A DNA stretch of 20,000 bases from Reclinomonas americana ATCC 50394 (taxonomy: Eukaryota), in the NCBI GenBank assembly GCA_048213135.1, contig PS015081.1, positions 59,960-79,959 on the forward strand, given 5' to 3'. The notes beneath the pieces are model-generated. The model did no database searches and was not told where the DNA came from. It saw only the letters and a list, made by a program, of their open reading frames with translations. The position numbers and the translations under genes are program-made. Shown here one piece after another: positions 2,815 to 20,000 of this stretch (position 1 is its first letter; every line of letters begins with the position of its first letter).

Positions 2815-4112
2815 TCACTGTCGACTTTGCACGGAACACAAAAAGCACAGCGACTGGGCATCCTCGCAGATGAAGCAGCGAAGGACTCGCAGCGGGAGTG
2901 GCTCTCCCTCGTCGACATCGTCGTCTTCGCGAGCGTGCAATTCGGCGAGAGCTTCGAGAGCTTGACGTATGCAGGCCAGTTCGCGATTCAGCAGGCGCAG
3001 TGCACTCCATGGACCTGCCAGTCGATGTTAACGCTATGGCAACTACCCAGTACTGCGTCGCCGTTGCGTACCTGTTGGCCACGTGAGGAAAGAGCCGGCG
3101 ACGTCGGTCGTCTCCTTGTACGAATACAGCGAAGGTGACCCGGGCTTCATCACAAACATCGTGCGATGGTACGTCCACGCGACGACCCGCAACGTGCTCA
3201 CTAGTGTGGCGCTTCTGGCGTGCCACACGCGGATGGATCCATCTGCGCGCAAGCGTTCACTCGTCAACGCAAAGCGGCAGAGCAGGCTTCCCTCACCCCG
3301 CACTCACCAAAGGACGAGCTGACAAAGAAGGCGCTGTCGTTCGTGAACGCCACATCCGCGACGCCCAGCTCGTGCTGACTGGTAGACGCCAGCAGGCGTA
3401 CGTCGCTCTCCAGCAACGCCCACACAAACAAGTGACCGGTGGGGTGACCGGTCACCAGCAGAGTCTCGTCGGGCGAGCATGCAGCGCATGTCAGCGAGTA
3501 CTGCATGGGCGGCGACTGCCACGACTGCAGCGTCTGCGTATCCCACCACTCCACGTCCGACGCCCGCATCACCAGCAGCAGCTGTCGATCCCCGTTCTCC
3601 AGCACCCTCAGAGGCGTGGCCGCCGTCGACTTCGGAAACACATTCAAACACTGCCCATCATCCGCACGCCACATGCGCACCGCCTCAGTGTGGGCGCTCG
3701 TGAACAGCAACTGCCCGTCTCTCGACGCCACCATACTCGTCACCAGTCGCGTGTGCCCCTCCCGCTGCCACACCACACGCCGAGTCGCCACCTCCCACAT
3801 AATCACCTGTCCAGGCACCTGTCGCCCATACCTGTACTGCACGCCATCCGCACTGCACAAGAGCGTTCCACCGCGCAGAAACAGCATGGCTGTCACGGGG
3901 TTGAGGTGCGCTTGCAACTCATGAACTGTGCGCATCTCCTCCTCCTCCTCCTTCTCCTCTATGAGATACACTGTGCGATCGCCAGCACCTATCGCGACCC
4001 ACGTGTCGCACACTGCCATGGAGCACACACCGTTCACTGTCGGCTCCCCCAGACTCACTTGCACATGCGGGTAGTGCGCGGCCGCAATCGCCTTCACTGT
4101 TGCTGTTCTCAT
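2815..4112 (-). CDS. WD40 repeat (beta-propeller) protein, about 391 aa
   Basis: Exons 4112-3308, 3242-3072 and 3014-2815 total 1176 nt and stay in frame. WD40-like units: LQAHLNPVTAMLF, REGHTRLVTSMVASRDGQLLFTSAHTEAVRMW, CSPDETLLVTGHPTGHLFVW. Splicing intron 3307-3243 completes FVSSSF/DGSIRVW. The last exon is less certain. Confidence 0.8.
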
Positions 4113-4177
4113 CGCGGAAGAGTGGAGAGATCTGTTGATTGGCAGTCTCTCTTGTCTTCTTCTTCTCTCTCTTTCCA
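4113..4177. promoter_or_regulatory. Putative bidirectional promoter between the divergent WD40 and S1P lyase start codons
   Basis: Only 65 bp separate the two ATGs. The spacer contains CGGAAG (4115-4120), an inverted CCAAT box (ATTGG, 4138-4142) and a CT-rich tract. Promoter function is inferred from gene geometry only. Confidence 0.5.
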
Positions 4178-6095
4178 ATGAGCGCTCTGCTGTGGATTGA
4201 GCACGCGATTGTGGCCGCGCTTGTGCTGTGGGCCATCAAGCAAGTGTACACCAAAGGTACGACGAGAACGCGAGCGAGAAAGAGAGTGAGAGTGTGTGCA
4301 TTGTCTGAGCAACACACACACAGGTCCTCGTGCGACCATTGGCAAGTTCCTTGTGCGCTTTGTGCGTGCCATCCCGTTTGCCGGAAACGCGATCAATGCA
4401 CAGCTCGGCTCTGAAGGTTTGCGCTTGTGTGACACTGTGCGTGCGTGCATGATCGTGTGACTGATTGCATGCATGCAGCGGAGAAAATGGTCGAGTCGAC
4501 CTTTGCGCAGATTGCCAAGCTGGAGCGGCTTCGTGCAGTGCCGCGACAGTCGTCGTCTGCGCAGGCAGTGCTGGGCAAGATCAATACGATGCGCGAGTGT
4601 GATAAGGATGCCTCGTGCGGGCGCACGTTTGCGTACACGTATGTGGTGTCGGAGGAGCATACGCACCTGCACAACGAGGTGACGGCCATGTATCAGCACT
4701 CGAATGCGCTCAATCCCATGGTGTTCAAGAGCCTGCGCAAGATGGAGACGGAGGTCGTGCGCATGGCGTGCACGATGTTGCATGGCGATGCGGATACGTG
4801 CGGTGTGATGACCACTGGCGGCAGTGAGAGTCTGGCCATGGCGATCAAGGCGTACAGGGATCGCGCGCGTGACACGGCGCCGCATATTGTCGAGCCAGAG
4901 ATCGTCATGTCCATTACTGCGCATCCGGCCATCGAGAAGGCCGCACACAACTTCAACATCAAGGTCACTTCTTCACTTGTGTGTCTCTTGCTTTTTGCGT
5001 GTACGTGGCTGACTGGCTGGAGGGCGTGTAGACCGTGTATGTGCCCATTGATCCGACGACATGCCAGCCACGCATCGACGACGTGCGTCGGGCCATCAAC
5101 CGCAACACGATTCTGGTGATTGGGTCGGCGCCGCAGTACCCACACGGCGTCATTGATCCGATTGAGGAGCTCGGCAAGCTGTGCGAGGAACATCGTCTGC
5201 CGCTGCATGTTGATGCGTGCGTCGGCGGCTTTGTGCTGCCATGGCTGGAGAAGCTCGGCTACGACATTCCGCTGTGGGATTTCCGCGTGCCGGCCGTCAC
5301 TTCCGTGTCACTCGACGCACACAAGGTGCTGCGATGTGGATGTGGCGAAGTCTGTTTGATATCCCTCACTCACTCGTGCGTTTATCATTTGTGCGGGGCG
5401 CAGTACGGCTACGCTGCCAAGGGTGCCTCGTGCATCCTGTACCGCTCCGACGAGTATCGCCAGTATCAGTTCTTTGTGTACGCCAACTGGCCCGGTGGTC
5501 TGTTCCTGTCCAGCACGCTGGTGGGCACCCGCGGTGGCCCCGGCATCGCATGCGCCTGGGCCACCATGGTCTCACTCGGCGAGGAGGGCTACATGGCGCT
5601 GGCCGATCGCGTCAAGAAGACGGCCGACAGCATGATGGACGAAGTGCGCCGGATCCCCGAGCTGCGCATCCTCGGCAAGCCGCACCTCACCGTCTTCTCC
5701 TTCACCTCGACTCCGGAATCCCGCCTCAACATTCTCTGCGTGGCCGACGAGATGGAGACGCGCGGGTGGACCATGGAGCGGCAGCAGAAGCCCGACTCGC
5801 TGCACTGCACCGTCACCCCACCGCACGCCAGCCGAGTGCAGGAGTTCGGCCGCGACTTGCGCGACTCGGTGGAGGCCGTGAAGCGCGATCCGGCCGCCGC
5901 TATGAAGAAGGGCTCGGCGGGAGCGTACGGTCTGCTGGCTAACATTCCCGGTGAGATCGAGAAGAAGAAGCACGTGGCGAATGTTGCGCTATGCAAACTC
6001 ACACAACAATCCCTTGCTCACACACACACACAGACGAGGCTGTCGCCGAGGACATGCTCCGCCAACTCTCCTGCAAGGTCTACAGCGACAAGTAA
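4178..6095 (+). CDS. SGPL1: Sphingosine-1-phosphate lyase (PLP-dependent), about 519 aa
   Basis: Exons 4178-4256, 4324-4416, 4479-4963, 5032-5325, 5404-5950, 6034-6095 (1560 nt). Hydrophobic N-terminal anchor. Family motifs: SNALNPMVFKSLRKMETEVVRM, MTTGGSES, TAHPAIEKAA, SAPQYPHGVIDPIEEL, LHVDACVGGF, DAHK/YGYAAKG (PLP lysine at the exon junction), WPGGLF. Confidence 0.95.
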
Positions 6096-6159
6096 ACATC
6101 AAAGAAGTCCTCCCAAAGTGTTGTCCCCGATCAGTCCCCCCACAGAGCACTCTCCTTCC

Positions 6160-7070
6160 ATGTCCGTGGACAAGGAGGATGCAGGGTGAGCACGGCGACA
6201 AGCACGAACACCCCTTGTGCACACACACTCACACGCACTCACTCACTGCAGGGCGGTCGCACGCTCGGGCTCCTACGCCGACACAGTCAGCAGATTGCGC
6301 GCAGCCAACAGTCGAGCACCGCCTCCACCACGCGGTAAGCACACACACACACACACACACACGTGTGTGCGAATGCATTGTGTGATGATGATGATGATTG
6401 TTATGTGATCTGTGCATGCAGCGGCGCATCGAACTCGACTGGCGTTTGTGCAGCCCGACGCTGGAGGCGCTCCGGACCCCGATGCCGCGCCTGTGTCACT
6501 GCCTCGCGCGCGGTCACAAGTGTCGACGAACAGCGGAGGCACTGGACTGCGTCGCAACATGTCCATGGGCGCAGTGGCCTCGGCGGCAGCAAATGGGAGT
6601 CTCGGATTGGGCGGTATGGCTGGAGGCTCGCATCCTGTTGCGTTGGTGCAGTGATGGGTGCAGGTGATGAGCCGCGCACTGAGAAAGTGCCTGCAGGATA
6701 TGACTGCGTTGAACAAGGAGGAGGAGGCCGAGTCGACCATGGAGCAGGCGTTGCTGGCTCCACGACGTTGCGCTGCTCCCGCACAGCTGGTGATGATGTG
6801 GGAGGGAAGTGATTGACGCTGTCTGTCTATCTATATGTGTGCAGCGGTGCCGAAACCTGAGAGCGAAGTCAGCACGGCAGTGACGATGCTGATTCACTCG
6901 GAGGATCTGAGTACGCACTCGTTGCTCATCAACCCCGATGTGTTCCCGCACCTGCGGTTACATAACATTGTGGAGCTCGGGTTCCCCAATGGACGGTCGG
7001 TGATGCTGCAGGTCACCACGATGCAGCGATTTCGAGGTGAGTCGAGAGGGTGACCAGGCAGAAGTTTATT

Positions 7071-7138
<68 letters not shown>

Positions 7139-10100
7139 TGTGTGTTCATAATGTCGTCGGTGCAGGCATCAACCAGCTCAGCGTGCACAAGAGTGTGGCC
7201 GACGCGTTTGGTGTGCGCGGTCGCATGGAGAATGTCACGGTGCGGGCGGTCGATCCGGAGATTGTCGGTCTCGACTTTATCGAGCTCTCGTTCAAGGAGC
7301 AATTCATATCGCGCTCCGACATGTGGCGCTTCATGCTGTACTTGCGAAACAAGTGCACGCATCGCACCAAGTTGTTTGTGTGGGCCGGCATGAGAGTTGC
7401 GTCGGCTTCTGCCTTTGCCTCTCTCCGCGTGGCGAGACTCACGCCCGTGCAGGCGCAAGTGGAGGAGCTGATGATGGATGGCACGGTGGTGGAGAGCGGC
7501 CTCATCACGCCGCACACCAAGGTCACGTTCCGCTCGCACTCGGCCAACTACATGTTCCTGTTCCAGATGAGCCGCGAAATGTGGCAGTATGCCGACGACG
7601 GTGATCTGCACTTTGAGAAGGCGGTGAATGGCTTCCTCAAAGAGGTGCACGATCGGTGGACGCGGTCGACCGCCTCGCATCACATGACGATTGTGTTTTG
7701 GTCGCGCTCATTCTTCTCCGAGGAGACGTTGCGTGCTGGAGCGAGTGTTGCGCCGCGAGAAAGAGTCGGCGGTTGGGCTGATGGTTGACTGTGCAGGGTG
7801 GCGGACATGCCGGAAGGAGAGCGCGCAGAGCTGTCCGAGGATGCATACGGGCGGCACTATCAGGACTTTTACAAGGTGGTGGTAGATCGGCAAGTGGTGC
7901 GCGAGTGGGACACTCTGCGGCGCGTCTTGAAGCACGAGTTCAATCAGTATCCGTCTCTGATTGGGTGGGATCCGCATGTATCGAAGGGTACGCACCTGCT
8001 TTCCGATGCTTTCTCTCTCTCATGTCGGTCACTCACTCTGCCACCTGCTGCCAGACGACCCGTTCTCGTCCACCATTGGCGAGAATTCAAACGCCGAAAA
8101 GGGCAATTTTCTTGAGGCACTGAACTTGACGCTGGACATTTTCGAGAGGGTGCGTGCCAGTGCAGCAGGAAAGGGTGCAGGTGTTCCAGGCGCGCTAACG
8201 CACACGTGTCTACACAGCATTACATCAATCGAGACCTGGCGCACACGGGCCAGTCGATTGTCATTGTCACCGCCGGTGTCGGCGTGTACGATGTGGATCG
8301 GTTACTGGCGCAGAGCACCAAGCGTCGCATGATCGACAATGGTATTGGATGCGATCTGGTGTGTATCTCGCAGGCCCCGCTGCATGCCGTCCCGCTGTTG
8401 CGGTACTCGGACGCGGAGTCATTGGTCTCCAGAACGCCGTTGAGTAGTAGTTGGTGTTGTTGATGTTGATGTGGCATTCGTGCAATGTTTGAGAGCTGGC
8501 AGCTTACTTCCTTCTGGCATTGCAGCAGCGACAGCCGGGTGGCGAGGTCGGCGTCGGCCAGTCGTGATCGAGAGGTTTCATCGTTTTGCTAGTGGCTGGA
8601 AAGTCTTGAGCTCACTTGACGTGTGTGCAGGGCTCGGTGTTCCACACGCCGCACTGGATGCGTATCTGCTTCTTCTCGTCCACCGTGTTCAACCCGCTGC
8701 CGCTGGATGCGAGGTTACAGGATATCTTTGTGCCACGCGCCCGCATGCCTGCTGCTCGAGGTGCGCATTGTGTGATGTGTGTGCACGCTGCCACGGAGCC
8801 GCTGACAGCTCCCACGCGCTGCTTCGCTCAGAGTACGCTTCGGAGCACGACGTCACCGGTGCCGGTGTTGGTGCCCCGCGTGCCGGCGACAGCATCATGC
8901 TGCCTTCATTCGTTGGTCTTGATGTGAGTGACGGCACAGGAAACAACGTGCATGCAGTATTACTCTGTTGTTGTTGACCATCCGCGCATACAGACTCTGA
9001 AGAAGGACGGCCGGTGGGACCACCAGATGTACGATGATTTCGTGTTCAGACCGGAGGCGTTTGGGAACGCCAGTGTTCCTTCCCCGCAGCAGAGTTGGGT
9101 TTTCCCTTGACGAGCATATTGTATTTGCTTTCTCACCTCTCTTTGCTTCGGGCAGGCATATCGCCCGTGCTGTATCGCTCTGGCAACTACGGCCGCAACG
9201 CACGCGTCCGGTCGTCCGGCGGCGCCAGTCCACCGCGAACGTTGCGACCGCCAACCTGCATCCCTCCCCATTCCCAGCCATTCACGGGCTTTTGTTTTTG
9301 CCACAGCACGGGCGGCATTCTGCGACACTCCTCCAGCAACTCGAGCCTGACGCAGCCCGACGGTCACAGCGACTGGGCGTCGGGTAGTGTCGGTGGTGTG
9401 CGCGGCGCAGGCAGCTCGATCACCACTGGCTCAGGGTCGGCCAACGATCGCAAATTCTCCGGCCTGACGCTCGCCCTGATGCGAGCGGGTGAGTCGGGAA
9501 TGCCGTCAGAGGCCCCCGATGCGATGGATGCTGGTGCAGTGGACGAGGATGGTGCAGCGCCGTGGCCGTTCTACTCGACAGAGGACGGCTCGGCCATGCC
9601 GCCGCCTCCAGTCCGCTCGTCGGTCGACCGTGATGCGCGCCGCGGACGGAGTGGATCCGTCAGCGGGCAGCCGCAGTTGCTGCAGCCGAGTGCCTCTGCC
9701 ATGCCCGCCAATGCACGATTCAACAGCACTGGCGGAAGTAGCATCACGCGGCGTGACCACATTCCCATTCGCCCCTCCATAACACCGGGCTCGTCGCCTC
9801 TTGCCGGCTCACCACTCAGTTTCAGTGGAGTGCACGACGATCCGCTGCGCCGGTCCGCCACCTCGGCACTATCCAACACCCGCATTGCTGCGGTGACTGC
9901 CAATGTGGTCAATCGTGCGTGACCTTCCATGCACAGAGGGAAGCACGCTGCTCGTTGCTCACATCCGTCTCGGTGTTGCAGCTTTTGTGGGTGCCAAGAA
10001 AGGCAGTCGCCGCAATGCCGGCTCGTCACGACCGCCACTTGCCGGCTCCACGCACTCGCACAGCGCAGTAAGCAGTCCGACCACCACACCACCACCCGAG

Positions 10101-13100
10101 AGCAACTGTTGCGTCATTTTCTTCCACCAGCGATGCAATCTCCATCTCGCTTATGATGTTTACTCGATACGTACAGCTCCACACTCGCAGACGGGCGACA
10201 TCCTGGCACCCATTCCCGAGACCGAAATGCTCACCGGCAGTGTTGACGATCGAGGCAGCATGAACGCCACGGTGTGTAAGGAGCGACCACAATCTCGTAC
10301 ACACTGATGCTAACTGCACATGTGCAGAGCCTGCTGCGGAGCGGACCGTCCCTGATGCCGGTCACTGTGCAACGAACGTTGCGATTCCTTGTCGTAGTTT
10401 GTCTCCCGCCCATGTGTAACACCCCGTGTCGTTTTGTCTGCGCAGCCTGAGCTTGCGAACCGCCAGTGAGCACTATGTGCAAATCTCGCCGAACACTCCG
10501 CCGCTGGTCGGTGGAGCGCCGTTGCATGAGGAAGGTTTGGCAAGCGCACTTGCGATGGATCTTGAGAAAACTATGTGGACTGACCGTGTCGTCTCTCCAG
10601 CGGACACCACCGACACCAGCATGTGCTCGCGCAAGGGTGGAGCGGTGACGTTTGAGTCGATGCCCTTTACTCCAGTGTCTCCGTCTGTTGCGTGCGCTGT
10701 GCTTGGCGGCCTCGCTGTTCGCGCCACTGAGTTTCTTGTCGTGCGCAGCAGGGCGAAGAAGGCAAGGAGGTGTACAATCCCTTCCAGTTCGACGATGCCC
10801 ACTCTCGCCGATCGTCCAGCAGCCGTCGTCGATGGTGCCACTTGTTCCCGTACCTCGATCGCGGTGAGTTGTGTGCTTGATGTACAGCGTGGTGAGCTTG
10901 CTTGCTTATAAGGGAGTGTGTTCGTTGGTGCAGCGGCGCTGGAGTCGTACGTGCCCAACTGGAAGTCGCTTAGTCAGCCTGCTGTGCTGCCAGTGACCAC
11001 GGAATTCCATCCGGACAAGCGTGAACTGTTGCGTGCCCCTTCCCATACCCGTGCTTATCGAGATCTCTTCCCCCTCACATGTGTCACGACAGCGACGAAA
11101 AGTACACTCGCTTCGGTTACGCGCTCACCGCTGTGGAGACGCCGTACCAGGAGAAGCCGTACACACTGCTGCTGGAGCTGGCCTGCCAACGCTTGCAGCA
11201 AGGGTACCAGGTGTTCTTGACGGACAAGATGTCGCCGAATGAGATGATGCAGGTGCACCTGAGCATGGGACCGCACTGCCAGACGATTGCACTCGACAGC
11301 AACAAGCAGGACATTTCTGTGACGGTGAGTGAGTGAGTGCGCCGCGTGTATGGGCGGAGATCAAAGCTGGCACCGCCGCTCATTTTCTCTCTCCGTCCCA
11401 CTCGCAGCGGTACGATCTGATCCGCGACCCACTGCCACCACCGAGACCATACCGCTACCGACTGTGGGCCTCGGAGGAAGATCGTTTCTGCATGAAGGAG
11501 GTGGTGTTTGGGAGGAGCGAGGATCTGTCGCATCACTGGAACTACATGGACCAGCTGGTGAGCGGCAACAACGACTTTTTCACCGACACCCTCAAGTACC
11601 GCCGCCTCAAGTACGTCATGCTCCCCACCGAGGTGCGAAGTGGACGTGTGACGTNNNNNNNNNNNNNNNNNNNNAGAGAGAGAGAGAGAGTCAAGATAGT
11701 GTGTTCTCACATTGTGTCGCGCAGTTTGTGGATGTTCTCAGCGGCACCATGTCGCGCGCCGAAATCGAGGCGCTGGCCGACAAGCGTGAAAAGAACTTCA
11801 AGCGTGTGGAAGGCTCCTTCACCAAGATCACTGTCAAGCCGGCTCCGGATCAGGACCCGATTGCCATCAACTACGATCGGCACATGGATGTCGACTGGGA
11901 GATGCTGCTGCGGAGTGCCGATGGTTTGTGTCGTCTTGAGAAAGGGAAAAGAGGGCGTGAACTCACACCCACTGTCGTGCAGTGTCGATGGAGAAGAAAC
12001 GCTCGTTTGGCTATCACTTGAAGAAGCGCGTCAAGTTGTCGGTGACCACGTATCGCACCGAGCGTGAAGAATGGCTGGTTCGTCTCACAAAGCAGCCGGT
12101 GCCGTGTCAGTGTGCTAACTGAGAGCTGTGCGTCCAGATTCTGCGCTACGACAGCGTGTTCAACCCGATGAACGCCTGCTACATTGTGTCGTTCGACTGG
12201 TCGGTGTGCGGCAGCGCTGTCGACGAGTACGTTCAGTTTATCAGCCGCCGCGCCAAGACCAACGGCTTCAACATGCTACCGATTCCGCACGAGAAGGATG
12301 TTCGCATTTTCGACACGCTGCATCACTACGCGTCGCTGAATTACTCGCCGGAAATCATGCTGGTGGCGTTGCGGGCATTGGTGACCGACCAGTTCCAGGT
12401 GAGGAATGAGAGTCGCGATGGGAGAAATGCAGGCATGAGATAACTGATCTGCCGGCGTTTTTTTTTCAATCAGTTCTATCCCGAGTCGATTCCCGTCCCC
12501 GGCGGCGGTGGCACCTGGTTCATTCATCACACGGGCGTGGCCATTGTGCAGCTGTCTGACAACAGCATGCTGTGGTTCGTGCCTGTTTGTGCGTAGATAA
12601 GAGATGTTGCATGCGACTAAAAACGTGGCACAGGTTCCGCAACCCGCTGGTCGCATCGAGCACCACCGAGTTCTTGCCGCTGCTGAACCGCTTCCGCGTG
12701 TTCTGCGATGCAGAGGCACCGGCCATTGCCGCTCGCATGCAGGAGCCGCCGATGCAGGTGTCTCCGTCGTCGCATGTGGGACCGACGAGGAGTGAGCCAC
12801 CGGGCGCGGCACAGGCAGGGATGGCGGCGGCTGGCGGTGCTGCTGGTGCCGCGGCGGGAGGCATGTCGCGGATGAGTTTCGGCAGCCCAGAAGACCACGG
12901 GACGACCATGCTGATGTACTCGCGCTCGGCTCCGTACTTGCTGGCCGACCTCGGCGGCTTGCGACACGAACACGACGGCGGCGACGATGAGGAAGCGGCG
13001 CACAGCAGCGGCGCGGAAGACGATTTGGACGCCAGTAGCTCACGCACGATTCCCAGCGGTGTCGAGGGACACCCGCACGCGCTGTCCTTTACGTCGGACT

Positions 13101-13316: not shown

Positions 13317-14532
13317 TTACACGGGCGAGGTCCACAGCTGCGGGGCCGGCGAGCGGCAGTAGTAAAAGTCGGTGACGCGCGACGACGGGCGCGGCGACAC
13401 GGGGCTTGCAGGTGACGACGACCTGTACGAGAGCGGGCTGGCGTCGTACGACGACGACGACGATGACGGCGACGAGATGGGCGAGCTCAGCAGCTTCACA
13501 GTCACGGGCGGGAGACCCTCCAGAATGCGCAGCACGTTCTGCCGATGGAAAGCCAGCGATGAGGAAGAAGAAGAAGAAGGGGGATGGGAGGGGAAGGGAA
13601 GCATCGAGTTGAACCTCGAGGCAGCAGTCAGTGCCGAGCAGCTGTGAAGCGCACAGTCAATCAACAGGCTGGTGAGCGACCGATAGAAGCAACAGACCTC
13701 GTGCTTGAGCGTCGTCTGCAGCACCAAAGAAGCAAATGAGTGCACCGTCAGGGGAGGGAAAGGAGCGACACGAAAGGCGGCTCACCTGGTGATACACGCG
13801 GAACTCGGGAACCTACAACGCGCACAAGGTAAGATCATACAAACATGACTGCATATCATGACGCGCGCAACGTCAAAGACACCAAAGGCCTACGACAAGA
13901 GCCCACAGTGAGCCACACACACACACACACACAAGCACAACACAGCAAAGAAGAACGCACCTTGACCCAGAGGTTCTTTCGTCCACAAAAAAGAGCGCGC
14001 AATGATGATGATGGAATGAGACAAAAAAAGTCGAAGGAAAAATGCACATCACAAGCAGCAGCAGACCGTCTCTTCAGACTCGTGCACGTCGACCTGCACA
14101 AGCGCACACTGCATAAGAACAAGCACTACACTCTCTCTCTCTCTCTCTCTCACCACAATGAACTGGCAACGCGGATAGAGCTTCGCCAGCGAGTCAAACT
14201 CAGAGCGCAAAAACAGACGCGTCGGTGCCACCCTTGGCACAAACACCACCAAAATCAGCACCAAAACACGATGAGAACAGCACGAAAAAGCGCAGACGAA
14301 ACAGCGACGAGTGGAAGAGCACAAACGCCCAATCGCGATGACCAAGCGCCGTCAGAAACTCGAGATAAGCAGGCGGACTAACAGAGAGGGAAGCATCAGT
14401 GTCTCTTGCACACACACATACACGCACACACACATACACACAAACACACACACACACACACACACATACACACATACACACACACACACACGCAACACGT
14501 AGGCACGGCCAGTGTCAAGCTCAGTCTCCATT
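13317..14532 (-). CDS. Thioredoxin-fold protein lacking the CXXC motif, with an S/P-rich tail; microexon gene, 5' end probably in the gap
   Basis: Exons 14532-14497, 14377-14303, 14232-14154, 14093-14067, 13975-13961, 13889-13872, 13812-13786, 13715-13698, 13641-13615, 13538-13317, all GT-AG. Spliced product: METELDTGRAYVPPAYLEFLTALGHRDWAFVLFHSSLVAPTRLFLRSEFDSLAKLYPRCQFIVVDVHESEETNLWVKAFGVFDVPEFRVYHQTTLKHELLGTDCCLENVLRILEGLPP...WTSPV*. This follows the thioredoxin pattern (LAKxYP-x-F-x-VDV; GV-xx-VP-x-F; ELxG). Confidence 0.8.
14409..14491. repeat. Imperfect (CA)n microsatellite in an intron of the thioredoxin-like gene
   Basis: CA units interrupted by occasional TA, CG and AA. Confidence 0.9.
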
Positions 14533-14568: not shown

Positions 14569-15249
14569 NNNNNNNNNNNNNNNNNNNNNNNNNNNNNNNN
14601 NNNNNNNNNNNNNNNNNNNNNNNNNNNNNNNNNNNNNNNNNNNNNNNNNNNNNNNNNNNNNNNNNNNNNNNNNNNNNNNNNNNNNNNNNNNNNNNNNNNN
14701 NNNNNNNNNNNNNNNNNNNNNNNNNNNNNNNNNNNNNNNNNNNNNNNNNNNNNNNNNNNNNNNNNNNNNNNNNNNNNNNNNNNNNNNNNNNNNNNNNNNN
14801 NNNNNNNNNNNNNNNNNNNNNNNNNNNNNNNNNNNNNNNNNNNNNNNNNNNNNNNNNNNNNNNNNNNNNNNNNNNNNNNNNNNNNNNNNNNNNNNNNNNN
14901 NNNNNNNNNNNNNNNNNNNNNNNNNNNNNNNNNNNNNNNNNNNNNNNNNNNNNNNNNNNNNNNNNNNNNNNNNNNNNNNNNNNNNNNNNNNNNNNNNNNN
15001 NNNNNNNNNNNNNNNNNNNNNNNNNNNNNNNNNNNNNNNNNNNNNNNNNNNNNNNNNNNNNNNNNNNNNNNNNNNNNNNNNNNNNNNNNNNNNNNNNNNN
15101 NNNNNNNNNNNNNNNNNNNNNNNNNNNNNNNNNNNNNNNNNNNNNNNNNNNNNNNNNNNNNNNNNNNNNNNNNNNNNNNNNNNNNNNNNNNNNNNNNNNN
15201 NNNNNNNNNNNNNNNNNNNNNNNNNNNNNNNNNNNNNNNNNNNNNNNNN
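14569..15249. other. Assembly gap (681 N)
   Basis: Run of N between two divergent genes whose 5' ends are missing. Confidence 0.95.
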
Positions 15250-15287
15250 GATCACGAGGAGCTCATCCCGTCTGTGTGTTTTCGCAG

Positions 15288-18200
15288 CGAAACCAACCTC
15301 AAGCTGAAGCGGAGCGTCAGCAGCACGTACCAGATGCGGGACACGCTCAGTGTCTACCAGTCCATGCGCGGCGTCATCAACTGTGAGACGCCGAACAAGG
15401 ACCTGCGCGAGTTCCACGGTGTCTTCGAGTCGAACTTGCGCTCTGTGCCGCTGCACTTGGAGAACCTGCTGTTGCGCGGCAGCACGGTGAAGAACACCGA
15501 GTGGGCCATTGGCGTGGTCGTGTACACGGGACACGACTCGAAAATCATGCGCAACATGACCGACCCGAAGCACAAGCAGAGCCAGGTTTGTTCACTTTCG
15601 TCGTACCGGCTGCGTGTGCGTCTTGTCACTGACTGCGCGCGGCATCGGCGGCAGGTGGAGCAACTGACCAACCGGTGCATCCTCATCCTGTTCCTTGTTC
15701 AAATCGGCCTCTGTTTGTTGTGTGCCGTGGGCATTGGTTTCTGGACCGTTGCGTGCATGTCGCACGGTATTCTCTTTGTGCACACGCGCGTGTGTCTCAT
15801 ACTGTTGCGAGCAGGAGCATGGCGAGTACACGGCGTGGTACATTTACGCTTCGAGACGTCCGTCGCCGACCACGCAGGGTCTCGTCGGCTTCTTCACCTT
15901 CCTCATCCTGTTCAACAACCTGATTCCCATCTCGCTGTACGTGTCGATGGAGATTGTCAAGTTTGCACAAGCGGTGGCTATTCGCCTGGACAAGGGCATG
16001 CATTACGAGCAAGTACAGGCCGACGGAACTCGCGTCACGACGCCAGCCGAACCGAGAACGTCGGCGCTGAACGAGGAACTCGGTCAGGTGCGTTCGTGTG
16101 TGTCACGCACCCGTCTACCCGTAGTGCATGCTGAGTTGTGCGACTGGCACAGGTCACGTATGTGTTTTCCGACAAGACGGGCACCTTGACGTGCAACCAG
16201 ATGAAGCTGCTCAAGTTTGCCGTTCCGGGTGCCAGCTACGAGCTGTACCCATCGCTGGTACTTCTGTCTCCCTGTCTCTGTCTCTCTCTCACGCACACAC
16301 TGCGTGTCTCACTGTGTGACCACGTGACCTGCAGCAACCGGGTGACATTCATCCGCTGCGTTCGGAGCTGGAAAACGTCAACTCGCCAGCGTACCAGCAG
16401 ATTCGCGAATTCTTCACGTGCATCAACCTGTGCAACACTGTCGTGCCTGAAGGAGGCTCGGCCATGACCACGGACGGTTGCGTTCGCGTGACTTGACTGC
16501 CGTATGCGCCCGCGCCTCTCTCAATTGGTATACCCCTTTTTGCAGCCATTCAATACCAGTCGGCGTCGCCCGACGAGGAGGCGTTGGTCAAGGGTGCCCG
16601 CGAACTCGGCTTTGCGTTGCTGGTTACGTGGAAGCTCGGCTGTGATGACCGTAGTGGCCGCGGTCGGTGGAGCTCACATGTCGAGTGTATTTTCTTGTGC
16701 AGTCGCGCACGCCGAGGTCGTTGACGCTGTTGGACACACGAACAGGCGAAGTGGTCGAGTTCACCATTGAGCACATTTTGGAGTTCACCAGCGATCGGCG
16801 CATGATGTCGGTCATTGTCAATGTCAATGGCGAGTGGTATTCACTCTCCGCTCAGCCTTAGCACGTCGTTGCTCATTTCTCTGTTTGTGTCACAGGTATT
16901 CGCGTGCTCTTTGCGAAGGGTGCAGACACGGTCATGCGAGAAAAGTCGGTGGAGGCCGCGATGGCTCACGAGAGTCACGAGCTGCACGACACGCTGGAGT
17001 ACCGCCTCAAGGTGATGTCTCCTCCGCCATCGTTGTCGTCCCTTGTGCTGTGGCTGACTCGAGGTGTCCTCGTGCAGGACTACGGCGAGGCCGGGTTGCG
17101 CACGCTGGTGTTTGCACGGCGCGAGTTGAGCGAGCAAGAGTACGGCGAGTTTGCGACCTTGTATCTGCAGGCGTGCTCCACGGTCGATCATCCCGCTCGC
17201 CGCGCCGAACTGGTGTGTGCAGCAGTGCTGTCCTTTTTTTTTTGCTGGCTTTGCTGACCTTGATGTTCGCCGTGTAGATGGCGGAGGCGTACAACTTGGT
17301 GGAGCAGCAGCTGTCCATGTTGGGCGTGTCGGGCATTGAAGATCGCCTGCAGGACGGCGTGTCGGAAACGCTGCAGACGCTGCATGCTGCGGGCATGCGA
17401 GTGTGGATGCTCACGGGCGACAAGCAGGAGACCGCCATCAATGTCGGCTACAGCTGCAAGTTGCTGAACAACGACATGCGCATGATCAAAGTTGCGTGCC
17501 ACTGTCGCACTGAAGGCCACACACACACACACAAAAGTCATTTGTTGATGTGAGCACACACACACACACACATAGTTTACCGAGCACTTGTCGAGATTTG
17601 GCGATCGGCAAGCTGCACAGTTCTATCGCGACATGGGCAGCGCGCTGTCGCAGGTGCAAGCCGAGGTGATTCACGGCAAACACGAGCGAGCGATGCAAGG
17701 AGATGATGACGAAGAACTGGGCGAGTTCGACACGAACCTCGACGACATTGCGATTGTGCTCGACGGCGATGCGTTGGAGATGGCACTGCAGCCGGAGCAG
17801 CGCATGTCGTTCTTGGAGTTGACGATTCGTGCCAAGGCCGTCATCTGCTGCCGTGTGTCGCCCAAGCAGAAGGCGGATGTGGTCAAGCTGATTCGTGAGA
17901 CCCTCGGTGCGGTCACGCTGGCCATTGGCGACGGCGGCAACGACTGTGCCATGATTCAGGCCGCCAATGTCGGTGCGTGGACATGTGATTGGATCATTCA
18001 GTGGAGTGCGCGATGCTCACTATGTGGGATACGTGTGCAGGCATTGGCATCAGCGGCAATGAGGGCATGCAAGCGGCGCGGTCCAGCGACTATTCCATCT
18101 CGCAGTTCCGGTACGCTGACGTGGCACGCTTGTTTGATCGGTGTCACTCCCACCCGTACTCATTCATTCATGGTGGGTTGGGCAGGTTCTTACAAAGGCT

Positions 18201-19355
18201 GCTGCTGGTGCACGGTCGCATGTCGTACAGGCGAATCTCCAAGCTCATTCTCTACTGCTTCTACAAGAACATTGCGTTGTACATGACGCAGTTCTGGTTT
18301 GTGCTGATGAACGGCTTCTCGGGCACGGTTTGTCGGCGTGGTGTGTAAAAATGATTGCACTGCGTGCTGACCATGTGCGACATGCAGAGTCTGTACGACA
18401 ACTGGACCCTGTCGATGTACAACATGCTGTTCACCTCCTGGCCAGTGCTGCTGTTTGCCGTCCTCGATGTCGACATGACACTGGACGATCAGCCGCAGCG
18501 CGATGTGCCGACCAAGCGCCTCAAATTCGCTCAAGTGTACAAGCTTGGACCGAAACACTACTACGTTGCGCTCCGTGCATGCTTGTGTGTTGCATCGTCT
18601 TGTGGCTTACTCATTCTTCTTTGTGCGCGCGTGCAGTTTACGACCAGTGCCTTCCTGGGCTACATCATGAACGCGTTCTGGCATTCGCTGCTGTGTATGG
18701 GCGCGGTGATGCTGGCCTTCCGCGGCACGGTCGGCTTCCAAGACGGTCGCAACGCCGATCTGTACATCATGGGCACTCTGGTGTACGCGCTGGTGATCGT
18801 GGTGGTCACCTTCAAGCTGGCACTGGAGACCAAGCTGTACAGCGTCGTGTCGATGCTGATTATTGTGCTCAGCATCGGCTCCTTCTTCGGCTTCATCTTC
18901 CTGGTCCAGTACCACTTGCAGTGGTCGCGCTCGACACTTTTCTACGAGATGACCGGGGTGGCCAACGACTTGTTCTCCAACTTTGTCGCCCCACTGGTCA
19001 TTCTGCTGGTGGTGGCGACGTGTCTCAGCCGCGATTTTGCCTGGCTGGCGGTGCGCTGGTTGTTCAGACCAACACTCCTGCACCGACTGCGCCTGCAGCA
19101 GGTGGAAGAAGATGACGACGACGGCAGCAAGGCGATGCGCGAGATACCAGACGCCGAGACGCGCGGCATGTCACCGACACAACGTTGCGTCTGCGTGCGT
19201 GTGTTGAGGCACCAAACCGCTCACTTACCCATCTCCCCCTCGCAGACAAGGGCTTTGCGTTCGTGGCACCCGAGCCGGGCTACAGTCAGATCTTGTTCTC
19301 CGACGAGGCGGCTCAGACGCGGAGAGAATCGCCAGCGTCACGCGATCGACCATAA
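15288..19355 (+). CDS. P4-type ATPase phospholipid flippase, Drs2/ATP8A-like; N-terminus lies in the gap
   Basis: Exons 15288-15585, 15655-15747, 15815-16087, 16153-16257, 16335-16476, 16546-16622, 16703-16829, 16896-17011, 17078-17212, 17278-17490, 17576-17972, 18041-18110, 18186-18327, 18388-18564, 18637-19183, 19246-19355. Motifs: [31 protein letters not shown] (phospho-Asp), [71 protein letters not shown], and a C-terminal GFAF. Confidence 0.95.
16830..16895 (+). other. GC-AG intron in the P4-ATPase gene
   Basis: G|GCGAGT...CACAG|GT is the only donor I found that keeps MSVIVNVN in frame with [11 protein letters not shown]. Confidence 0.7.
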
Positions 19356-19437
19356 GTGAAACCTATCAAAAAAAAGTCCTGTTGTCAGCATTGTGCACGT
19401 GACGACATCACTCGTTTTGTTGTTTCGCCCTTCCGCA

Positions 19438-19625
19438 ATGTCCGACGACGTGCACATGGAAGACGTGGCAGGTACTGCATGTGTGTATATGTGAATGAGA
19501 GAGATCAAAGAAGAATGTGCGAGTTTGCACATACGCCAATGCGAGGGTTCATTTTTGTTTCCAAAGTCTCGTGTGTATGTGTGCGCTGCATTGTGCATGT
19601 CTCTCTTTATCTCTCTCTCTCTCTC

Positions 19626-19662
<37 letters not shown>

Positions 19663-19913: not shown

Positions 19914-20000
<87 letters not shown>
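19914..20000. repeat. (AG)n microsatellite running to the window edge
   Basis: More than 40 uninterrupted AG units. Confidence 0.95.

Follow-up and report, generated by a model that had tools for sequence, protein, structure and literature searches.

A Ten-Exon Gene with Six Consecutive Microexons in Reclinomonas americana and Its Predicted Divergent Thioredoxin-Fold Product

A stretch of 20,000 nucleotides (nt) of Reclinomonas americana ATCC 50394 DNA (GenBank assembly GCA_048213135.1, contig PS015081.1, positions 59,960 to 79,959 of the forward strand; hereafter the window, with all coordinates counted from its first letter) contains on its minus strand a chain of ten exons that runs from 14531 to 13317. 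Their combined coding sequence (CDS) of 543 nt specifies 180 amino acids and a stop codon, and six consecutive exons within it are microexons of, in gene order, 27, 15, 18, 27, 18, and 27 nt. Taking all the evidence together, the best explanation, to which we assign a probability of about 0.82, is that this is a genuine minus-strand gene that is ordinarily spliced and encodes a divergent thioredoxin-fold protein. A preliminary description of the window, made from the letters alone, had pointed to the microexons as part of a hidden multi-exon gene missed by the open reading frame (ORF) track, with flanking exons at 14232-14154 and 13538-13317. The exon chain proved to be exactly as first read, and both flanking exons belong to it.

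Transcript and Coding Evidence

The exon chain is supported by a transcript-derived protein. With exon 10 as the query, a single protein among 328 candidates was retrieved at E ≤ 0.01, with an expectation (E) value of 4.6e-33. This protein, P0001, has 180 amino acids, is a complete ORF called on an expressed sequence tag (EST) in EukProt, and is named EP00694 Reclinomonas americana. The spliced product of the window has the same length and aligns with it without a gap, 176 of 180 residues being identical and the differences falling at positions 49, 100, 128, and 168. Since the match is gapless, all of the junctions, including those of the 15-nt exon, are present in the complementary DNA (cDNA)-derived sequence; in the only transcript-derived protein recorded, nine GT-AG introns have been removed and six microexons joined. 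A codon model for which only Pfam-supported parts of the neighboring genes served as training data gave the spliced frame a log-odds of +54.9, versus -66.2 and -109.6 in the other two frames.

Splice-site syntax carries far less information. Stop-free segments of 15-27 nt, with lengths that are multiples of three, preceded by AG and followed by GT, number 343 on the plus strand and 348 on the minus strand of the 20 kb, and candidate chains of at least six such segments separated by gaps of 50-130 nt end at 80 places on the plus strand and 58 on the minus strand. The AG/GT microexon syntax alone is not above chance, and a chain of this kind can be found almost anywhere in the window. A dynamic-programming parser that combined codon scores with introns found two true acceptors (14232 and 13975) and none of the ten exons complete. 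A complete expressed gene can escape ORF scans and simple gene finders, and transcript-derived proteins can recover such genes.

Gene Structure

The six peptides quoted in the preliminary description were mapped to the minus strand, where every one of them has AG directly before it and GT directly after it and each exon length is a multiple of three; every coordinate was reproduced, as were the flanking phase-0 introns. Exons 1, 2, 3, and 10 were added by reading outward from this array. Exon 1 (14497..14531, 35 nt) opens with the start codon at 14531-14529, encodes residues 1-12 with its last codon split, and matches the N-terminus of P0001. It is followed by intron 1 (14378..14496, 119 nt, phase 2), which is mostly a (GT)n microsatellite bounded by GT and AG and contains the motif CTGAT, the A of which lies 18 nt before the 3' splice site. 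Exon 2 (14303..14377, 75 nt) encodes residues 12-37, comprising alpha1, beta2, and the start of a degenerate active-site stretch in the predicted fold described below. Beyond intron 2 (14233..14302, 70 nt, phase 2), which has an AAG acceptor, exon 3 (14154..14232, 79 nt) encodes residues 37-63, with LVAPTR replacing the WCGPCK of thioredoxins, alpha2, and the start of beta3. Intron 3 (14094..14153, 60 nt, phase 0), beginning GT(GA)n, leads into the array.

Microexon 4 (14067..14093, 27 nt) encodes residues 64-72, spanning the end of beta3, a loop, and the start of alpha3. The intron that follows it, intron 4 (13976..14066, 91 nt, phase 0), has a purine-rich AAAG acceptor and is the only one of the nine that lacks the motif YTNAY within 10-40 nt of its 3' splice site. 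Microexon 5, the smallest (13961..13975, 15 nt), encodes residues 73-77 (NLWVK), in which NLW is a three-residue insertion relative to all 32 of the thioredoxins aligned. After intron 5 (13890..13960, 71 nt, phase 0), which has a (GT)n tract, microexon 6 (13872..13889, 18 nt) supplies residues 78-83, the end of alpha3 and a loop. Intron 6 (13813..13871, 59 nt, phase 0) separates it from microexon 7 (13786..13812, 27 nt; residues 84-92), which carries P85, at the conserved cis-proline position, and all of beta4. Intron 7 (13716..13785, 70 nt, phase 0), microexon 8 (13698..13715, 18 nt; residues 93-98, a turn and the first part of beta5), and intron 8 (13642..13697, 56 nt, phase 0) precede the last of the series, microexon 9 (13615..13641, 27 nt; residues 99-107, the end of beta5, a loop, and the start of alpha4). 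Intron 9 (13539..13614, 76 nt, phase 0) is pyrimidine-rich with a (CTT)n run. Exon 10 (13317..13538, 222 nt including the stop codon at 13319-13317) encodes residues 108-180, the remainder of alpha4 and a tail rich in Ser and Pro that is predicted to be disordered, and is 97% identical to P0001 at 100% coverage.

All nine introns are thus bounded by GT and AG. The first two are in phase 2 and the remaining seven, which are all of those bordering microexons, in phase 0, making every microexon symmetric (phase 0-0). Exon-plus-intron units across the array measure 118, 86, 77, 97, 74, and 103 nt. The microexons account for 132 of the 543 coding nt; seven introns delimit these 132 nt, a density of one intron per 19 coding nt, and nine lie in the whole 543 nt. 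A run of N from 14569 to 15249 starts 37 nt upstream of exon 1 and hides the 5' untranslated region (UTR) and the promoter.

The Encoded Protein

A phmmer search with P0001 against 1.84 billion cluster representatives gave three matches at E ≤ 0.001: P0001 itself, P0002, and P0003. The last of these, matched over residues 18-110 (E 1.3e-5), is a triple-thioredoxin protein with three PF00085 domains (E 2.6e-60), and a BLASTP alignment with it has 28 identities in 95 positions (29%) and a single gap of three residues. A search from one P0003 domain yielded a thioredoxin set of 36 among 39 candidates, of which 32 were aligned after four fragments of 70-88 amino acids had been dropped. Against the profile of these 32, hhalign gave P0001 a probability of 89.5% and an E value of 2e-6 over residues 26-103; pairwise identity is 11-25% overall and about 16-25% for most. 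A PDB sequence search returned three matches at E ≤ 10 (E 0.098-1.3), all of them thioredoxin-fold domains in the same register: the thioredoxin (Trx) domain of yeast Grx3 (E 0.098 and 0.12) and a Tetrahymena outer-dynein-arm thioredoxin (E 1.3).

The other match, P0002, is an uncharacterized protein of 1182 amino acids from the abalone Haliotis rufescens that has no Pfam family. At least six repeats in it match residues 1-53 of the jakobid protein (library-wide E 2.6e-7), and these may be a degenerate thioredoxin-like half-domain or a compositional coincidence. The fold assignment made here does not draw on this similarity.

An AlphaFold model computed with the thioredoxin alignment has a block-mean predicted local distance difference test (pLDDT) score of 78-92 over residues 11-120 and of 40-61 beyond residue 120. 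Its helices (H) and strands (E) are H14-23, E28-34, H41-55, E59-65, H70-79, E86-91, E94-100, and H106-113, followed by a disordered tail, and the model has the order beta-alpha-beta-alpha-beta-alpha-beta-beta-alpha. Foldseek with this model retrieved thioredoxins almost exclusively, the best being 2e0q (E 1.1e-5, template modeling [TM] score 0.81). The ESM Atlas places residues 1-120 nearest to clusters at 0.91-0.93 that include thioredoxin/DIM1 families, with shared-feature counts of 135-158 that lie under the 170 typical of same-family matches and make this a lead only. In the alignment of 32 thioredoxins, invariant columns include the phenylalanine that precedes the active site, the CGPC proline, and the cis-proline P85; the VDV strand is also preserved.

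Significant homology to bona fide thioredoxins (phmmer, hhalign) is therefore combined with a modeled fold in which the conserved cis-proline precedes beta4. Homology and model together indicate that the product is a divergent thioredoxin-fold domain of about residues 10-118, followed by a Ser/Pro-rich tail, an assignment that holds through sensitive methods only. The preliminary description had held that the joined microexons (residues 64-107) reproduce the C-terminal half of a thioredoxin fold; phmmer, BLASTP, hhalign, the model, and Foldseek agree on this, placing them in the stretch that begins late in beta3 and ends early in alpha4. It had also staked the gene on a thioredoxin-like profile match of the spliced product, and here the outcome is divided: the profile of 32 thioredoxins matches under hhalign and the Pfam profile does not.

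The WCGPCK of thioredoxins reads LVAPTR in the product, in which both catalytic cysteines and the tryptophan are gone and no CXXC motif remains. Because both cysteines are missing, the protein is probably redox-dead at the classical site, and its probable role is that of a binding or scaffold module; the tail, with its many Ser-Pro sites, could be phosphorylated and thereby regulatable. The gene adds to the known proteins a lineage-restricted, cysteine-less member of the thioredoxin fold that has no detectable orthologue.

Exon Boundaries and the Fold

The microexon boundaries fall after residues 63, 72, 77, 83, 92, 98, and 107, in a region (residues 64-107) where the block-mean pLDDT of the model is 78-91. 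The suggestion that the exons roughly match single secondary-structure elements did not survive comparison with this model. Five of the seven boundaries cut a strand or helix (beta3, alpha3 twice, beta5, and alpha4), the other two lie in loops, and only one microexon of the six, that encoding residues 84-92 and beta4, holds one whole element.

Introns and Splicing

The introns have the features of spliceosomal GT-AG introns: canonical ends in nine of nine, a branch-point-like motif, and a spliced product colinear with the EST-derived protein. A YTNAY motif lies 10-40 nt before the 3' splice site in eight of the nine, with its A 15-22 nt upstream of the site; in shuffles the mean number of introns with the motif is 3.2, and eight was reached in 0.2% of 1000 shuffles. 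In intron 4 a motif of the YTNAY type was read by eye just outside the preset 10-40 nt interval. Acceptors are CAG in four introns, TAG in three, and AAG in two, and the nine 5' splice sites have little in common past GT. Intron GC content is 43-59%, versus 62% in the CDS, and the introns contain 27-47% T and 3-23% A.

We infer that short, T/G-rich, A-poor introns of this kind would be recognized as units (intron definition), which would make exons of 15-27 nt spliceable, as exon length would not be limiting; around the smallest exon (15 nt), neighboring introns would probably be removed sequentially. Ordinary splicing by intron definition would account for the array, in preference to a device for isoform diversification, because the microexons encode core strands and helices. 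How an intron-definition spliceosome handles exons of 15-27 nt could be studied well in such a gene.

Selection for skipping in frame would not be needed to produce the run of phase-0 introns, because codon bias tends to place AG|R sites in phase 0. Third codon positions in the neighboring coding sequence are 45% G and 7% A, and there 45 of 63 AG|R sites and 28 of 34 AG|G sites are in phase 0.

Points Against and Alternative Explanations

Several points weigh against the interpretation of the locus as an ordinarily spliced gene for a thioredoxin-fold protein. Full inclusion of the microexons rests on a single EST-derived ORF, compared as protein, and the window and EST products differ at four residues. 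Codon bias explains the phase run in part only, with AG at the exon end in four of the seven phase-0 junctions. With respect to the fold, hmmscan of P0001 against Pfam-A found no family at E ≤ 10, and the PF00085 gathering score was not reached; the alignment used for modeling consisted of thioredoxins only, making the AlphaFold model and the Foldseek result partly circular, and a single-sequence AlphaFold model was poor (pLDDT 42) and unusable. The proposed function follows from cysteine loss alone. Finally, no orthologue was found in any other organism by library-wide phmmer, by a word-index search, or by a scan of metagenome contigs: the word-index search with P0001 among proteins of 99-315 amino acids returned only P0001 from 1409 candidates, and of 112 pattern matches to loci that might encode a relative in the metagenome contigs, tblastn confirmed none.

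How the introns came to be so crowded is a separate matter. A density of one per 19 nt far exceeds any general intron density, and most introns of the array would for this reason be gains made at some time in this lineage. The idea that they arose in a recent local burst, through a copy-and-paste introner-like element or tandem duplication, has a low though not negligible probability in our estimate. It would fit the contrast between seven introns within 132 coding nt and neighboring-gene coding pieces of about 80-950 nt, as well as the intron poverty of another jakobid, Andalucia godoyi, in which 107 of 864 curated genes have introns (PMC7050145). The nine introns also have a mean pairwise alignment score of 16.9, versus 14.3 in mononucleotide shuffles (standard deviation of the means 0.43). 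This excess is nevertheless attributable to shared TG-rich low complexity, since shuffling destroys repeats: the only strong pair is that of introns 1 and 5, which align (GT)n with (GT)n (score 44), and the next best pair scores 28, under the shuffle maximum of 32. Among the nine introns of this gene, to which the comparison was confined, the shared sequence expected of introners was not found; nor does the region have any tandem periodicity besides the microsatellite, the exon-plus-intron units being unequal (74-118 nt). Jakobid chaperonin genes, moreover, are mentioned in an older paper as possibly departing from the low intron density of excavates (PMC1501061, citing Archibald et al. 2002), and by this token intron richness may be genome-wide and not local.

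A different route to the same crowding starts from the simple repeats that make up much of introns 1, 3, 5, and 9, and that in two cases stand directly after the donor, as (TG)n after GTTGCG in intron 1 and as (GA)n after GT in intron 3. The array could be an intron-birth hotspot in which seven phase-0 introns arose within 132 nt of a once-continuous thioredoxin frame, GT/GA-rich microsatellite expansions in the coding sequence having been rescued by splicing. We regard this as a long shot; if true, microsatellite rescue would be a route to new introns. Intron number alone does not make the gene unique, as wheat thioredoxin genes have 0-8 introns (PMC9813791). Jakobids span intron-poor Andalucia (PMC7050145) and the intron-dense window described here, and the genomes of sister species could date and explain the gains. 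In the literature searched, no account of how Reclinomonas nuclear genes are built, or of microexons in jakobids, was found, and PMC12817076 and PMC2834692 contained nothing that bears on them.

The window product differs from P0001 at four amino acids, which implies that the window copy and the EST come from different alleles, strains, or recent paralogues. The differences could even mean that the window copy, as a recent paralogue or the allele of another strain, is not the expressed locus and that the EST derives from a sister copy. This is improbable, given that the window copy retains an intact 180-codon frame, canonical GT-AG ends in nine of nine introns, favorable codon usage, and a gapless match to the EST product. 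Were it nevertheless so, the exon-intron architecture would be the same, and only the copy sampled would change.

Isoform diversification, in which any subset of the microexons would be skippable in frame as in schistosome micro-exon genes (MEGs), is unlikely, and we give it a very small probability, because skipping would take out parts of the core of a compact domain. Between them the microexons specify beta3, alpha3, the loop with the cis-proline, beta4, beta5, and the first part of alpha4, and the domain should unfold if any of them other than exon 5 were lost. Such a cassette is suggested by the six symmetric microexons and seven consecutive phase-0 introns; the phase-0 run, however, is partly expected from codon usage, and the sole transcript-derived protein on record contains all six microexons. 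Among the 1409 candidates of 99-315 amino acids no shorter isoform was found, which, coming from a small EST set, is weak evidence. The analogy with MEGs is weak: those genes encode secreted proteins, have long introns, and in the case of MEG 2.1 produce disordered isoforms (10.1101/2023.06.21.545858, PMC10399815), and here there are a folded domain and introns of 56-91 nt. A weaker form of the idea concerns exon 5 alone. The intron upstream of it has the weakest acceptor (AAAG) and is the one without a branch-like motif at 10-40 nt, and the exon's own three-residue insertion, absent from all 32 aligned thioredoxins, makes it the best candidate for optional inclusion; this 15-nt exon may be optionally included.

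Neighboring Genes and Surrounding Sequence

Apart from the assembly gap, the window is intron-rich eukaryotic DNA of about 55-63% GC without long ORFs. It contains N runs at 11655-11674 and 14569-15249, the second of which also cuts the 5' part of a divergent gene for a phospholipid-translocating P-type ATPase (P4-ATPase), hiding the upstream region that the two genes share. Pfam searches on ORF pieces identified five neighboring genes: on the minus strand, a PX domain gene (1783-2402) and a WD40 propeller gene (3267-4235); on the plus strand, a pyridoxal-dependent (PLP) decarboxylase gene (5032-6186), a gene with an IML1/DEPDC5 N-terminal domain (7054-8460 and onward), and the P4-ATPase gene (15250-19356). 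Their coding sequence falls for the most part into pieces of about 80-950 nt; the WD40 gene has at least 720 nt of uninterrupted coding sequence, and the ATPase gene has eleven segments of 111-807 nt. The preliminary description had considered the neighbors free of fragmentation like that of the microexon gene. This stands for the bulk of their coding pieces only, because these were delimited by codon-score segments and Pfam, a method to which microexons are invisible and by which they are not excluded in the neighbors.

Two further segments were seen close to the 3' end of the thioredoxin-like gene. On the minus strand, an ATG 8 nt past its stop codon opens a frame of 43 codons (13308-13180) with a strongly hydrophobic start and a codon score of 16.9, which may open a tightly packed downstream gene as its first exon or have arisen by chance in a T/G-rich 3' UTR. 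On the plus strand, a coding-like segment at 13366-13512 (score 16.4) lies antisense to exon 10, close to where the IML1/DEPDC5-like gene that starts at about 6880 presumably ends; the segment may be an antisense artefact of codon bias or a convergent overlap. Four long dinucleotide microsatellites were recorded: (GT)36 at 7074-7145; (CA)41 at 14409-14491, which on the minus strand is the (GT)n body of intron 1; (TC)21 at 19600-19640; and (AG)43 at 19914-20000, which runs off the end of the window.

Comparison with Known Systems

Classical thioredoxins (PF00085), represented by P0003 and the Euglena longa thioredoxin P0004, resemble the product in fold order and in the register of conserved positions, the shared positions being the phenylalanine ahead of the active site, the CGPC proline, the VDV strand, the cis-proline, and the glycine that follows beta5. 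The product differs from them in having LVAPTR and not WCGPCK, in the three-residue insertion at the start of alpha3, in its 60-residue Ser/Pro-rich tail, and in falling under Pfam detection. The nearest PDB sequences, those of the yeast Grx3 N-terminal Trx domain (3d6i and 5y4t), match residues 19-104 at E values that are not significant alone. This domain, like the product, has a thioredoxin fold with a degenerate active site. Cysteine-poor Trx domains of the Grx3 type are used as modules and not as reductases. Grx3, however, keeps one cysteine in the alignment (WAEPC) and is fused to a glutaredoxin domain, and the product has neither.

With regard to architecture, schistosome MEGs resemble this gene in having very short symmetric exons, with lengths divisible by three, one after another. 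MEGs are described as having exons of 3-81 bp, long introns that can reach 5 kb, and secreted products, and those MEG 2.1 isoforms that have been solved are disordered and alternatively spliced (10.1101/2023.06.21.545858, PMC10399815). The present gene, in contrast, has no long introns in its array, its microexons lie in the folded core, a single isoform is on record, and the N-terminus of its product does not look by eye like a signal peptide. Plants offer another parallel, for there constitutive and often unannotated microexons lie inside conserved domains and are revealed by transcripts (Yu et al. 2022, PMC8831610); in both cases tiny coding exons in domains are missed by gene finders or ORF scans. 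The plant microexons are of 15 nt or less, mostly single (two are adjacent in peptidase M1 genes), conserved among land plants, and set between longer introns (PMC8831610), whereas the R. americana gene has six in a row and is a lineage-restricted protist gene. With one intron per 19 coding nt inside a folded domain, it is an extreme case for intron biology, of moderate interest for intron evolution and genome annotation, and, set beside these systems, it is an extreme but mechanistically ordinary case of microexons in an intron-dense protist gene.

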